Source of the DNA: a virus
Taxonomy: Duplodnaviria; Heunggongvirae; Uroviricota; Caudoviricetes
IMG/VR virus record: IMGVR_UViG_2602041644_000006
Coordinates: 1-9,831 of that record
Direction: 5' to 3' (one strand)
DNA length: 9,831 nt
Part shown: in pieces, positions 6,633 through 8,241 of the stretch
Numbering within the stretch: position 1 is the first letter of the stretch
How the letters are laid out: the number at the start of each line of letters is the position of its first letter
Translations under genes and position numbers: made by a program
The notes under the pieces: model-generated
Told to the model about the DNA's origin: nothing
Databases searched by the model: none
Seen by the model: only the letters and a program-made list of their open reading frames with translations

Positions 6633-6995
6633 TTAATGACCTGCTGCGCGGAGTTTTCCGTCAGGTTCACCGGCAAGAGTCAGTAATTGTCCCTGGTCTT
6701 CCTGCAGAATAGTCAGGCGACCACCGCGATTGACATACATCGGCGTTTCGGTGGTGTCTTCTTCAGAAATTTTCCCGCGGTTAGTCGGGCGAACATATGA
6801 GAGTTTGTGTTTGATTTTCACACGGTTCTCATCAAACGGTTCGATTTCCAGGTTGAGCGAGACCTTACCTTTGGTTTTCGTGTTCATCACACCGGAAGCG
6901 ACTTCACTGAGAACTGCGCCGATTTTGGTTTCAAATACGCCGCCGTCCAGCTCCCCGATAAATGCCTGCACATCAGTACTGCGTTCGCTAGCCAT
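6633..6995 (-). CDS. yfdP: YfdP-like prophage protein, 120 aa (start at MASERSTDV)
   Basis: The track ORF 6633..7313 carries a junk-like in-frame extension across the GC-rich leader. The ATG at 6993-6995 has an AGGAGCAG Shine-Dalgarno and gives a 120-aa product. Confidence 0.6.
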   Translation of the reverse strand: MASERSTDVQAFIGELDGGVFETKIGAVLSEVASGVMNTKTKGKVSLNLEIEPFDENRVKIKHKLSYVRPTNRGKISEEDTTETPMYVNRGGRLTILQEDQGQLLTLAGEPDGKLRAAGH

Positions 6996-7043
6996 TTTGC
7001 TGCTCCTCATCATATCGACCCTGCAAGGTCGGTTAGTTTCTCC

Positions 7044-7132
7044 ACAAAACAGAGAAGAACACCTGCGGTGACTGCCGCCCGGATGGATTGGGTTATGAGC
7101 CCGTCGTCCGGTGATGCTCTTCTCTGTTTTGT
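7044..7132. repeat. 15-bp perfect inverted repeat (ACAAAACAGAGAAGA ... TCTTCTCTGTTTTGT) enclosing a 59-nt GC-rich insert with nested short stems
   Basis: Arms at 7044-7058 and 7118-7132 are exact reverse complements. The insert contains further complementary pairs (CCGGA/TCCGG, GCGG/CCGC). Confidence 0.6.
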
Positions 7133-7140
7133 AAAAAGGA

Positions 7141-7177
7141 CGGTACCAGCCGGAAGCAAGGGTACAAGCTGGTACCG
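7141..7177. repeat. 10-bp perfect inverted repeat (CGGTACCAGC ... GCTGGTACCG) with a 17-nt loop
   Basis: Arms at 7141-7150 and 7168-7177 are exact reverse complements, immediately next to the 15-bp inverted repeat. Confidence 0.6.
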
Positions 7178-7396
7178 CCAGGACTACACACAGCATAAAG
7201 TTGTGGTGCCGGGTGCCTCCCGGTGCCTGGCGAAGGTTGCACACCAGGCGGGTGGGTATCCACAGAAGGTCGACTGTCAGCCTCAACCTTAACCCGCGTG
7301 CGCTGAGCCGCATTCACCACAACGCTAAGGATTCTCTCTGGTTGAAAATACTTAGCTGTTATGTGCCTGCTTTTAGCCACATCAGGCGAGGTGGAC

Positions 7397-7448
7397 CTGG
7401 TTATTCCCCAACAACAAGGATTCGGTTAATCTGGTTATCCCCAACAAC
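7397..7448 (+). repeat. Two direct repeats CTGGTTAT(T)CCCCAACAAC, 34 bp apart, just upstream of the 7464 start
   Basis: Copies at 7397-7415 and 7431-7448 differ by one inserted T. A third partial CTGGTT occurs at 7338-7343. The sequence after each core diverges. Confidence 0.55.
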
Positions 7449-7463
7449 GCAAAAGGAAAAGAA

Positions 7464-7898
7464 ATGTCCGGTAATATCTACACGCTATACAAATCCCACT
7501 GTGAAAATGTTGGAAAGTATCGGGGCATTGAAATCAGTGGGGTAGTGTCATCAGTCGAAATAAGCAAAGTTGAATCAAGGGCAACATTACTTACTCTTTT
7601 GGACCTTGTCTTACATGAGCACCGGAAGAAATTCGGCACTCCCTATAATCAGTTGAATGGGAAAAAGGCTCTGGTTCACCTTATTCTGATGAAGCATCAC
7701 TGGATGCCAAAACAGATTAATGAGATGAAATTTGATGAACTTCTTCTTTCAATTCAGGATGAACTCACACTTGATAAAATAAGCGTAACCGCCCAGAAAT
7801 TTTTAGATTATCGAGACTGGAGATCACAAATTCATCACTTTGATGATTTTGACGAAAATGAATGGGATCCTAATTTGTCTGCACAATATCTAAAGTAA
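7464..7898 (+). CDS. AT-rich opposite-strand gene, 144 aa, unknown function (possible moron)
   Basis: ATG at 7464 preceded by AAAGGAAAAGAA. It is the only plus-strand gene left of cro, visibly more AT-rich than the adjacent leader, and its last 29 nt overlap the 3' end of the convergent 68-aa gene. I recognise no family for the product. Confidence 0.6.
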   Translation: MSGNIYTLYKSHCENVGKYRGIEISGVVSSVEISKVESRATLLTLLDLVLHEHRKKFGTPYNQLNGKKALVHLILMKHHWMPKQINEMKFDELLLSIQDELTLDKISVTAQKFLDYRDWRSQIHHFDDFDENEWDPNLSAQYLK

Positions 7899-8076
7899 CA
7901 TCCTGTGATAAAACCGTGATTTCCTGATCCAGTTTTTTTAAGGAGTCTATTGTTTCCTGTCGATAAGACAGCACTTCACGAAGCTGGTTTATAGCTGCCA
8001 GCTTCTTTGTCATCCACTCATAAATTTCCTCATCTGTGTAGCCAGGCGCGACGATTTTGGGTTCTGTTTTGTGCAT
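7870..8076 (-). CDS. First gene of the leftward early operon, 68 aa, unknown function
   Basis: The track ORF starts on TTG at 8091; the ATG at 8074-8076 has a GAGGAG Shine-Dalgarno 8 nt upstream. It lies downstream of the predicted PL and the boxA-like element. The N-terminus is not arginine-rich, so it is not obviously N-like. Confidence 0.5.
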   Translation of the reverse strand: MHKTEPKIVAPGYTDEEIYEWMTKKLAAINQLREVLSYRQETIDSLKKLDQEITVLSQDVTLDIVQTN

Positions 8077-8120
8077 TTCACATCTCCTCAAGTTATCAGT
8101 TACTTGTTGATGGGGACCAG

Positions 8121-8133
8121 ATTGTTAAAGAGC
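8121..8133 (-). promoter_or_regulatory. rrn-type boxA match (GCTCTTTAACAAT on the minus strand) in the PL leader
   Basis: Matches 13 consecutive bases of the E. coli rrn leader boxA (TGCTCTTTAACAATTTA) as I recall it. It sits directly 3' of a hairpin, in the boxB-then-boxA order of rrn leaders, about 45 nt upstream of the 68-aa gene start. Confidence 0.5.
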
Positions 8134-8134
8134 T

Positions 8135-8160
8135 AAGCGTCCTGTAGGGCGCTTTTTTGT
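8135..8160 (+). terminator. Intrinsic terminator on the plus strand (8-bp stem, UGUA loop, U6 tract); on the minus strand the same hairpin is weaker and has no U-tract
   Basis: AAGCGTCC-TGTA-GGGCGCTT followed by TTTTTTGTT. On the plus strand the stem includes one G-U pair; on the minus strand that position is a C-A mismatch. Positioned to stop plus-strand transcripts from the 144-aa gene before PL and cI. Confidence 0.6.
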
Positions 8161-8241
8161 TGCTAACGAATCATCCTGGACTTCATATGCCCCAGGCGGC
8201 TACTTCGTGGGCGTCCTGCCTGTTCGTTATCTTTGATATAA

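Follow-up and report, generated by a model that had tools for sequence, protein, structure and literature searches.

What is the role of the two closely spaced direct repeats that lie immediately in front of a 144-aa gene in this phage DNA? They were found in a stretch of 9,831 nucleotides, referred to here as a whole as the window. A preliminary description had noted two copies with a spacing of 34 bp, the second ending 15 nt before the start codon, and a third partial copy, CTGGTT, further upstream; it had suggested binding sites for a regulator or, more speculatively, the RNA antitoxin of a type III toxin–antitoxin system. We find that the repeats do sit in the control region of the 144-aa gene, where they overlap the most conserved non-coding block of the surrounding cassette, while the toxin–antitoxin part of that description does not stand. 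Rather than an RNA antitoxin, the repeats most likely represent part of a prophage accessory gene's promoter and leader that has been duplicated.

The coordinates of the two repeats, their 34 bp spacing and the 15 nt distance to the start codon agreed with the preliminary description, and a shuffle test confirmed the duplication. The elements of the duplication are:

7397–7415, plus strand: repeat 1, CTGGTTATTCCCCAACAAC, read from the sequence; its 3′ part contains the putative −35 element
7431–7448, plus strand: repeat 2, CTGGTTATCCCCAACAAC, the predicted start-site region and CA-rich leader
7390–7460, plus strand: the full imperfect tandem duplication, with unit 1 at 7390–7423 and unit 2 at 7424–7460, read from the sequence and from the significance of the self-alignment
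7453–7457, plus strand: AAGGA, the Shine–Dalgarno sequence of the 144-aa gene; this is the second AAGGA and lies inside unit 2

Repeats 1 and 2 are identical at 18 of 18 positions, with one extra T in repeat 1; their starts are 34 bp apart, and the ATG at 7464 follows the end of repeat 2 after 15 nt. When the region 7338–7463 was aligned with itself, the best gapped off-diagonal alignment scored 32, compared with 13.1 ± 2.2 and a maximum of 22 for 300 dinucleotide shuffles (z about 8.8), and the duplication is therefore not due to chance. The duplicated units are longer than the preliminary description had given. They lie head to tail, unit 1 (7390–7423) consisting of GGTGGACCTGGTTATTCCCCAACAAC, a four-position alignment gap and AAGGATTC, and unit 2 (7424–7460) of GGTTAATCTGGTTAT, a one-position gap and CCCCAACAACGCAAAAGGAAAAG. 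Both units are closed by AAGGA, the copy at 7416–7420 having no start codon after it and the copy at 7453–7457 serving the 144-aa gene. Over their full length the units match at only about 27 of 37 positions, with two indels, and the earlier caveat that about 19 nt of each unit are conserved was correct. TRF called no array on the repeats, as the units are too diverged and gapped, and an ungapped repeat search gave only 79% identity over 19 nt. The proposed third copy has to be dropped. CTGGTT is indeed present at 7338–7343, but the hexamer occurs 15 times in the window, and this occurrence lies beyond the mosaic junction at 7394/7395, within an STnc100-like RNA gene module that is also found in phages without the repeats.

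The window comes from an SfIV/SfV/mEp460/e14-like lambdoid prophage of E. coli and Shigella and covers its immunity and early-left region. Its minus strand carries int, xis, the DUF4222 and DUF551 genes, ead/Ea22, yfdR, yfdQ and yfdP; the order after yfdP is the STnc100-like RNA, the repeats, the 144-aa gene, a 68-aa gene, a LexA-like cI, cro and ymfL. At least 80% of positions 7300–7900 of the window, which include the repeats and the gene, was found in 419 of 5,426 complete E. coli genomes. The features surrounding the repeats are:

7130–7353, minus strand: STnc100/PasD-like structured sRNA gene with its own terminator, outside the cassette (Rfam match and fold)
7395–8164, no strand assigned: mosaic cassette of 770 bp; homology to sister phages with other genes at this site ends at 7394 and resumes at 8165
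7464–7898, plus strand: 144-aa gene of the ECs1072 family, with an all-alpha orphan fold (NF033230, phrog_5286 and predicted structure)
7870–8076, minus strand: convergent 68-aa gene, phrog_1744, sharing 29 nt with the 3′ end of the 144-aa gene
8135–8160, plus strand: hairpin and T-tract, the intrinsic terminator for the 144-aa transcript (terminator scan)
8133–8122, minus strand: boxA-like GCTCTTTAACAA, following the 8135–8160 hairpin on the minus strand

Many phage and plasmid matches to the window end exactly at 7394. Phage vB_EcoM-720R4 (L013) and a Salmonella plasmid-borne prophage (L014) are both 97% identical to the window up to the GGTGG at 7394 and then continue with different plus-strand small ORFs; from 8165, L014 is again 100% identical to the window. 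Since homology to these two stops at 7394 and other ORFs lie beyond, a mobile cassette begins with the repeats; after them it contains the 144-aa gene, the 68-aa gene that converges on and overlaps it, and the hairpin terminator. Phage morons are cassettes of promoter, gene and terminator that are inserted between conserved lambdoid genes and expressed from the prophage, with lambda bor and lom and HK97 gp15 as examples. The cassette at 7395–8164 has the anatomy of such a moron, inserted antisense into the early-left (pL) operon: it is a discrete insert, with borders at 7394/7395 and 8164/8165 relative to L013 and L014, and it has its own terminator at 8135–8160.

The RNA gene on the other side of the junction matched STnc100 (RF02076) over its full length at 7130–7353, with a score of 42.4 bits that is below the gathering threshold of 47 (E = 1.2e-6). 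Its predicted folding energy of −97.2 kcal/mol compares with −77.0 ± 4.8 kcal/mol for shuffles (z = −4.2), and it has a putative minus-strand promoter, CTGATG-17-CATAAC. STnc100 and PasD have been described as prophage-borne, Hfq-associated sRNAs. The RNA beside the cassette resembles them in being structured, ∼220 nt long, encoded on the minus strand and closed by a terminator; its place in the pL operon differs from the usual one of known members, close to Q and the lysis genes. Because the sRNA module ends at the 7394 junction and also occurs without the cassette, we treated it as a separate neighbour. The possibility that the repeats are activator sites for the divergent sRNA promoter was rejected, as phages without the repeats carry the same sRNA promoter.

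Residues 4–144 of the 144-aa protein matched the NCBIfam model NF033230 with 157.8 bits (cut-off 70), and the protein also matched phrog_5286, a phrog without an assigned function, at E = 1.5e-90; searches of Pfam, PADLOC and PDB sequences gave no match. Its family is small, with 65 clusters at 50% identity, and all members found were from Enterobacterales. Residues H72 and W134 are invariant throughout the family, and R39, R54, G66, A69 and W80 are nearly so. The AlphaFold (AF2) model is entirely alpha-helical (pLDDT 93.4, pTM 0.88), and Foldseek returned nothing significant with it (best E = 1.9 in the PDB and 1.6 in BFVD). The sole expression evidence for the family is a microarray signal for one member, ECs1072, in the uninduced O157 Sakai lysogen (PMC2241611).

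The small convergent partner gene encodes 66–93 aa in the different loci, contains the motif PG[YM][TS]xE[EQ][IL]x[ED]W and matches phrog_1744. The gene pair is present in the window, L003, L005, L006, L008, L009, L011 and ST64B; L004 is without the small gene. The pair lies between the antiterminator gene Q and the holin gene in the distant loci, and just downstream of pL and the boxA-like sequence in the window. In every case the small gene is co-directional with lytic transcription and the family gene runs against it. Sequence-profile and fold searches found no DNA-binding domain or fold in either cassette protein.

The comparison of relatives shows where the duplication is found and which part of it is conserved. 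Four loci, the window, L003, L005 and L004, form clade A, with proteins that are 46–72% identical among themselves, and all four have the two-unit layout. Two units are confined to this clade, and just three independent lineages have them; L006, L100, L009, L008 and L011 contain a single unit or none at all. The sequence upstream of the gene in L003 is ∼99% identical to the window, compared with 72% for the protein, which indicates that the leader serves as a recombination linker; part of the conservation of the repeat region could stem from recent recombination rather than from selection. Among 84 near-identical relatives, which are too similar to each other to reveal any selection signal, CTAG replaces the CTGG of repeat 1 in 33. 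A scan of viral sequences yielded 80 loci, all with an identical protein, and a scan of genome contigs only three. An alignment of 37 sequences contained no stretch conserved enough to serve as a search query, and scans with P0011, P0012 and P0015 were empty or gave distant matches.

The window and L005 are only 65.5% identical in DNA overall and 52% in protein, and the following elements stand out in the comparison of the two:

7402–7432, plus strand: 31-nt block, TATTCCCCAACAACAAGGATTCGGTTAATCT, 100% identical in L005 and the longest identical run in the whole cassette
7404–7409, plus strand: putative −35 element TTCCCC, from a PWM scan; L004 keeps TTCCTC
7427–7432, plus strand: putative −10 element TAATCT, 17 bp past the −35 and at the unit junction; L004 keeps TACTCT

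The next longest identical runs shared with L005 are those of the boxA and terminator hairpin at the opposite end of the cassette. L004 has a protein 56% identical to that of the window and an unrelated phage context; it is homologous to the window from 7402 onward, two bases ahead of the −35. Its hexamers read TTCCTC-17-TACTCT, and the spacer is free of indels despite a 7-nt insertion immediately before this stretch and altered lengths after it. All three clade-A lineages also retain the ACAAGGA in the spacer. Conservation is unusual for a promoter spacer, and this could point to a second function of the spacer, as a protein site or, if transcription starts further upstream, an RNA site. The spacing of the CTGGnTAT halves varies by lineage, being 33, 34 and 42 bp.

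We take the 31-nt block to be a putative promoter. In both the window and L005, TTCCCC-17-TAATCT is the best plus-strand sigma-70 candidate in the PWM scan, with a score of 6.6 bits that is not rare by chance. It is a weak candidate, with 7 of 12 positions of the consensus hexamers, although T−12, A−11 and T−7 are kept, and a consensus scan with a threshold of 9/12 did not list it. Both the hexamers and the 17-bp geometry are retained in diverged relatives, being identical over the 31 nt in L005 and free of spacer indels in L004. All the other lineages and sister cassettes have a −10 candidate of the form TA...T located 33–47 nt before the ATG, the one in the window being at −37; examples are TGG-TATCCT, TGG-TATCTT, TGA-TATCGT and TGA-TATTGT, several of them with an extended TG. 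Two other assignments were tried and rejected. Taking TGGTTAT as the −10, by analogy with the TGG-TATCCT of sister cassettes, puts the register off by one, loses T−7 and leaves the shared −35 22–23 bp away; the sigma-32 consensus and those of other sigma factors did not fit. We found no transcription start-site data in the searchable literature.

These observations are best accommodated if the duplication forms the promoter and leader of a moron expressed in the lysogen, to which we assign a probability of about 0.5. A weak sigma-70 promoter would span the duplication, with the CCCC tract of repeat 1 giving the −35, the unit junction supplying the −10, and repeat 2 providing the start site and leader. 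Transcription would begin inside repeat 2, at about 7437–7441, leaving the remainder of repeat 2 (CCCCAACAAC) as a brief leader, rich in CA and poor in structure, that precedes the AAGGA and the start codon at 7464. The hairpin at 8135–8160 would terminate the transcript. As the 144-aa gene faces pL, it would rely on its own promoter in the lysogen, and after induction convergent pL transcription would be expected to oppose it. The leader RNA is predicted to be less structured than shuffles (−8.2 versus −14.7 ± 2.8 kcal/mol, z = +2.3). A structure-poor leader is not a family trait, however: the leaders of the window and L005 are poorly structured, but those of L006 and L100 fold better than shuffles. 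In L006 and ST64B, a repeat-2-like element follows the −10, the L006 copy being GTTATCGCCAAACAAC. The presence of this element behind the −10 in distant homologues suggests that repeat 2 is the ancestral start site and leader, with repeat 1 as the extra copy.

The other explanations differ in whether the repeats act as RNA, as DNA or not at all. For the repeats to be a type III antitoxin, their transcript would have to be processed into RNAs one unit long, and these would neutralise an endoribonuclease toxin, the 144-aa protein. The resemblance to ToxIN, AbiQ/AntiQ, CptIN and TenpIN lies in short direct repeats of similar period placed directly upstream of a phage-associated ORF, here within a prophage accessory cassette, and the unit of ∼34 nt is within the range of the ToxI, AntiQ and CptI antitoxin repeats. 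This reading is extremely unlikely: protein, terminator, RNA structure, Rfam search and phylogenetic distribution all speak against it. The 144-aa protein is unrelated to the known toxins, with no ToxN_toxin match in Pfam and nothing ToxN/AbiQ-like by sequence in Pfam, PADLOC or the PDB or by fold in Foldseek searches of the PDB and BFVD; the structural comparison proposed in the preliminary description set an all-alpha model (pLDDT 93.4) against the mixed alpha/beta ToxN/AbiQ fold and gave no fold match. There is no plus-strand terminator-like site in 7338–7464 that could act as an attenuator, as the preliminary description had itself pointed out for the interval between the repeats and the ORF. 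The repeats had no Rfam match, ToxI-like families included, even at E ≤ 10, and their RNA is less structured than shuffles (z = +2.3). There are only two diverged units, the second being the gene's own ribosome-binding leader with its Shine–Dalgarno sequence, and repeat 1 would remain untranscribed if the predicted promoter is right. Nor are the repeats found family-wide: clade-B homologues carry a single unit, and in distant homologues the repeats do not co-occur with the family. Operator sites are a less remote but still unlikely explanation, in which a repressor or activator, either the 144-aa or the 68-aa cassette protein acting on its own gene region or a protein supplied by the host, binds both repeats over the −35 and +1 and controls the 144-aa gene. 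The direct-repeat operators of the P2 C repressor have a spacing of about 22 bp, and those of the related W-phi about 34 bp; similarly, the window has two near-identical sites of 18–19 nt, about 34 bp apart, that bracket the putative core promoter elements. In the window, L005 and L004 alike, the CCCCAACAAC halves are about 33 bp apart, and the conserved two-gene cassette is reminiscent of autoregulated toxin–antitoxin-like modules. The 12-mer TGGTTATCCCCA recurs at 2009–2020 and TGGGTATCCACA is found at 7253–7264, making four matches with up to two mismatches where 0.64 are expected. Repeat 2, the 2009 site and repeat 2 of L004 (ATATCCACA) match the DnaA box consensus, TTATCCACA, at 8 of 9 positions. 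A regulator could not be assigned, and the sequence-profile and fold searches showed no DNA-binding domain or fold in either cassette protein; in contrast to the P2-type systems, no cognate repressor was found and the cassette moves among phages that differ in their immunity regions. Identity with the resident cI/Cro operators was rejected, these being of the CTAAGT/ACTTAG type and unrelated to the repeats; the L013 operator shares TGGTTATCC but not the palindrome arms. A spacing of 34 bp corresponds to 3.2 helical turns, so that the two sites would not lie on the same face of the helix. The CTGGnTAT halves vary, both in spacing (33, 34 or 42 bp) and in the CTAG found in repeat 1 of 33 of the 84 close relatives, and distant family members have only a single unit. 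The DnaA-box reading was likewise set aside; the 8/9 match of several copies is lost in L005.

Control at the RNA level would require transcription to start upstream of repeat 1, in which case the duplicated leader could be a platform for a CsrA dimer, for Hfq (through AAC/AAG triplets) or for the divergent STnc100-like sRNA. We regard this as unlikely. CsrA-repressed leaders such as those of glgC and pgaA have at least two GGA motifs 10–63 nt apart, one of them at the Shine–Dalgarno sequence and typically in hairpin loops, and the CsrA SELEX consensus is RUACARGGAUGU. Like these leaders, the window has two A(N)GGA motifs (ACAAGGA and AAAAGGA) 37 nt apart in a leader predicted to be single-stranded, the second being the Shine–Dalgarno sequence; ACAAGGAU fits the 8-nt core of the consensus, and the two-GGA layout is conserved in L005 and L004. 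However, any Shine–Dalgarno sequence contains GGA, the upstream GGA of the window lies outside predicted hairpin loops and may be untranscribed, and upstream of repeat 1 the cassette has no promoter candidate, the −10 of sister cassettes being replaced by ACCTGG in the window. As for the sRNA, its segment 7334–7311 is complementary to repeat 1 (−20.6 kcal/mol) and to repeat 2 with the Shine–Dalgarno sequence (−18.8 kcal/mol) as a result of a third, inverted copy of CCaCAACgcTAAGGATTC at 7312–7334, and STnc100/PasD sRNAs are Hfq-associated according to the literature. Duplexes of this strength can be expected by chance (−17.7 ± 2.5 kcal/mol with shuffled sRNA, p about 0.18), the complementary segment is buried in the stem of a 5′ hairpin and the same sRNA module is present in phages without the repeats, so we kept sRNA–leader pairing only as a minor rival. 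It is also unlikely that the duplication is neutral, the second copy being a scar of slippage or recombination at the mosaic junction and the gene working equally well with one unit. The recombination junction three bases before the repeats makes such a scar plausible, and it would also fit the single unit in a deep branch of the family, the common G>A polymorphism tolerated in repeat 1, the 7-nt insertion in L004 and the L003 leader as a recombination linker (upstream ∼99%, protein 72%). Nevertheless, three lineages have retained two units while their proteins drifted apart to 46–56% identity, and nothing in the cassette is better conserved than the 31-nt block across the duplication; this persistence and conservation argue for some function and against a neutral scar.

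Returning to the proposed promoter and leader of a moron, we compare the cassette with known prophage-expressed genes. Like other morons, the 770-bp unit is self-contained, with sharp mosaic borders and with other genes at the same site in sister phages, and it has a putative promoter and a plus-strand intrinsic terminator in an orientation independent of the operon. It differs from them in having two convergent overlapping genes, a weak candidate promoter and an internally duplicated promoter region. The sieB-type genes of lambda and P22 are expressed in the lysogen and lie inside the pL operon. The 144-aa gene is similarly situated between the repressor gene and the early-left genes, against pL, and expression in the lysogen would be expected; however, no sequence or fold relation to the sieB-type genes was detected and the 144-aa protein has no membrane segments. 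We know of no exclusion phenotype for the ECs1072 family.

The duplication is most likely an ordinary, though previously undescribed, promoter and leader duplication of a prophage moron. As such, the repeats mark where yet another accessory gene of a very common prophage starts, which in itself matters little. Their analysis removes a tempting but wrong toxin–antitoxin annotation and offers a neat case in which a short tandem duplication at a mosaic junction appears to have built a promoter. The convergent gene pair, with its orphan fold, is a more promising lead than the repeats. Very speculatively, and with little likelihood, the pair could be a hitherto undescribed two-gene prophage conflict module, consisting of an exclusion or abortive-infection effector expressed in the lysogen and a partner made only during the phage's own lytic growth, with the repeats as an autoregulatory operator or a site of RNA-level control. 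In many Enterobacterales prophages the pair lies directly after an antitermination site (nutL-like or Q), which makes this position a reasonable place to look for new exclusion and defence functions.

On its repeat-proximal side, the cassette that carries the 144-aa ECs1072-family gene is flanked by a structured RNA gene on the minus strand. The features on this side are as follows:

7130–7353, minus strand: STnc100/PasD-like structured sRNA gene (RF02076 match)
7141–7177: terminator stem of the STnc100-like RNA
7385–7357: putative own promoter of this RNA, CTGATG-17-CATAAC
7044–7132: large inverted repeat between the sRNA terminator and yfdP
6633–7313, minus strand, and 7201–7545, plus strand: long ORFs

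The RF02076 score was 42.4 bits, slightly under the gathering score of 47, and the fold z-score was −4.2. The STnc100-like RNA of the window lies in the pL operon, whereas known STnc100/PasD members are usually found near Q and the lysis genes. In L005, another locus with an ECs1072-family homologue, its place is taken by a shorter minus-strand element (360–420) that ends in a terminator and contains a tandem ACGGGAAACAA repeat. The arms of the inverted repeat are 25 nt long and 84% complementary, separated by a loop of 39 nt; despite the replacement of the STnc100-like RNA, the loop motif GGATTGGGTTATGAGCCCGTC is also found in L005.

In the SfIV annotation, one long ORF is gp34 and the overlapping plus-strand ORF is gp35. 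PHROG matches are confined to the C-terminal yfdP part of the long ORF, yfdP is 363 nt in the RefSeq annotation, and there is a structured RNA in this region. The long ORFs spanning 7000–7313 are probably not genes.

We noted that motifs resembling the direct repeats upstream of the ECs1072-family gene recur within the window. The 12-mer TGGTTATCCCCA of the second repeat has an exact second copy at 2009–2020, antisense to the Shine-Dalgarno sequence and start of the DUF4222 gene, and TGGGTATCCACA occurs within the sRNA gene (7253–7264). Allowing up to two mismatches, there were 4 matches to the 12-mer against 0.64 expected. Several copies agree with a DnaA box at 8 of 9 positions. The whole window contains 15 copies of the hexamer CTGGTT, most of them on the plus strand, against an expectation of 4.7 ± 2.1; the excess is probably a codon effect arising from AAC-CAG in minus-strand genes.

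Two minus-strand features lie at the far end of the cassette:

8154–8135 and 8133–8122, minus strand: hairpin followed directly by the boxA-like sequence GCTCTTTAACAA
8270–8242: predicted pL, TTGCCA-17-TAGATT

Along the minus strand, the predicted pL comes first, then the hairpin and boxA-like site, and then the 68-aa gene; the hairpin doubles as the plus-strand terminator. In rrn operons a hairpin precedes boxA, and the order in the window is the same; it is conserved in L005.

An unannotated ECs1072-family ORF of 144 aa was found in Salmonella phage ST64B (NC_004313), a prophage of S. Typhimurium SL1344:

L100 2345–2779: ECs1072-family ORF, between Q/sb49 and holin

The annotation of sb50, which overlaps this ORF, seems too long. 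The ECs1072-family gene and the phrog_1744 gene (66–93 aa) form a convergent, 3′-overlapping pair that is conserved across Enterobacterales prophages (window 7464–8076 and homologous loci L003, L005, L006, L008, L009, L011 and L100). The pair is always directly past an antitermination site (nutL-like or Q), and in all these loci the small phrog_1744 gene has the same direction as lytic transcription. In distant loci, the gene overlap spans conserved residues of both proteins. The pair may constitute a two-component conflict module.
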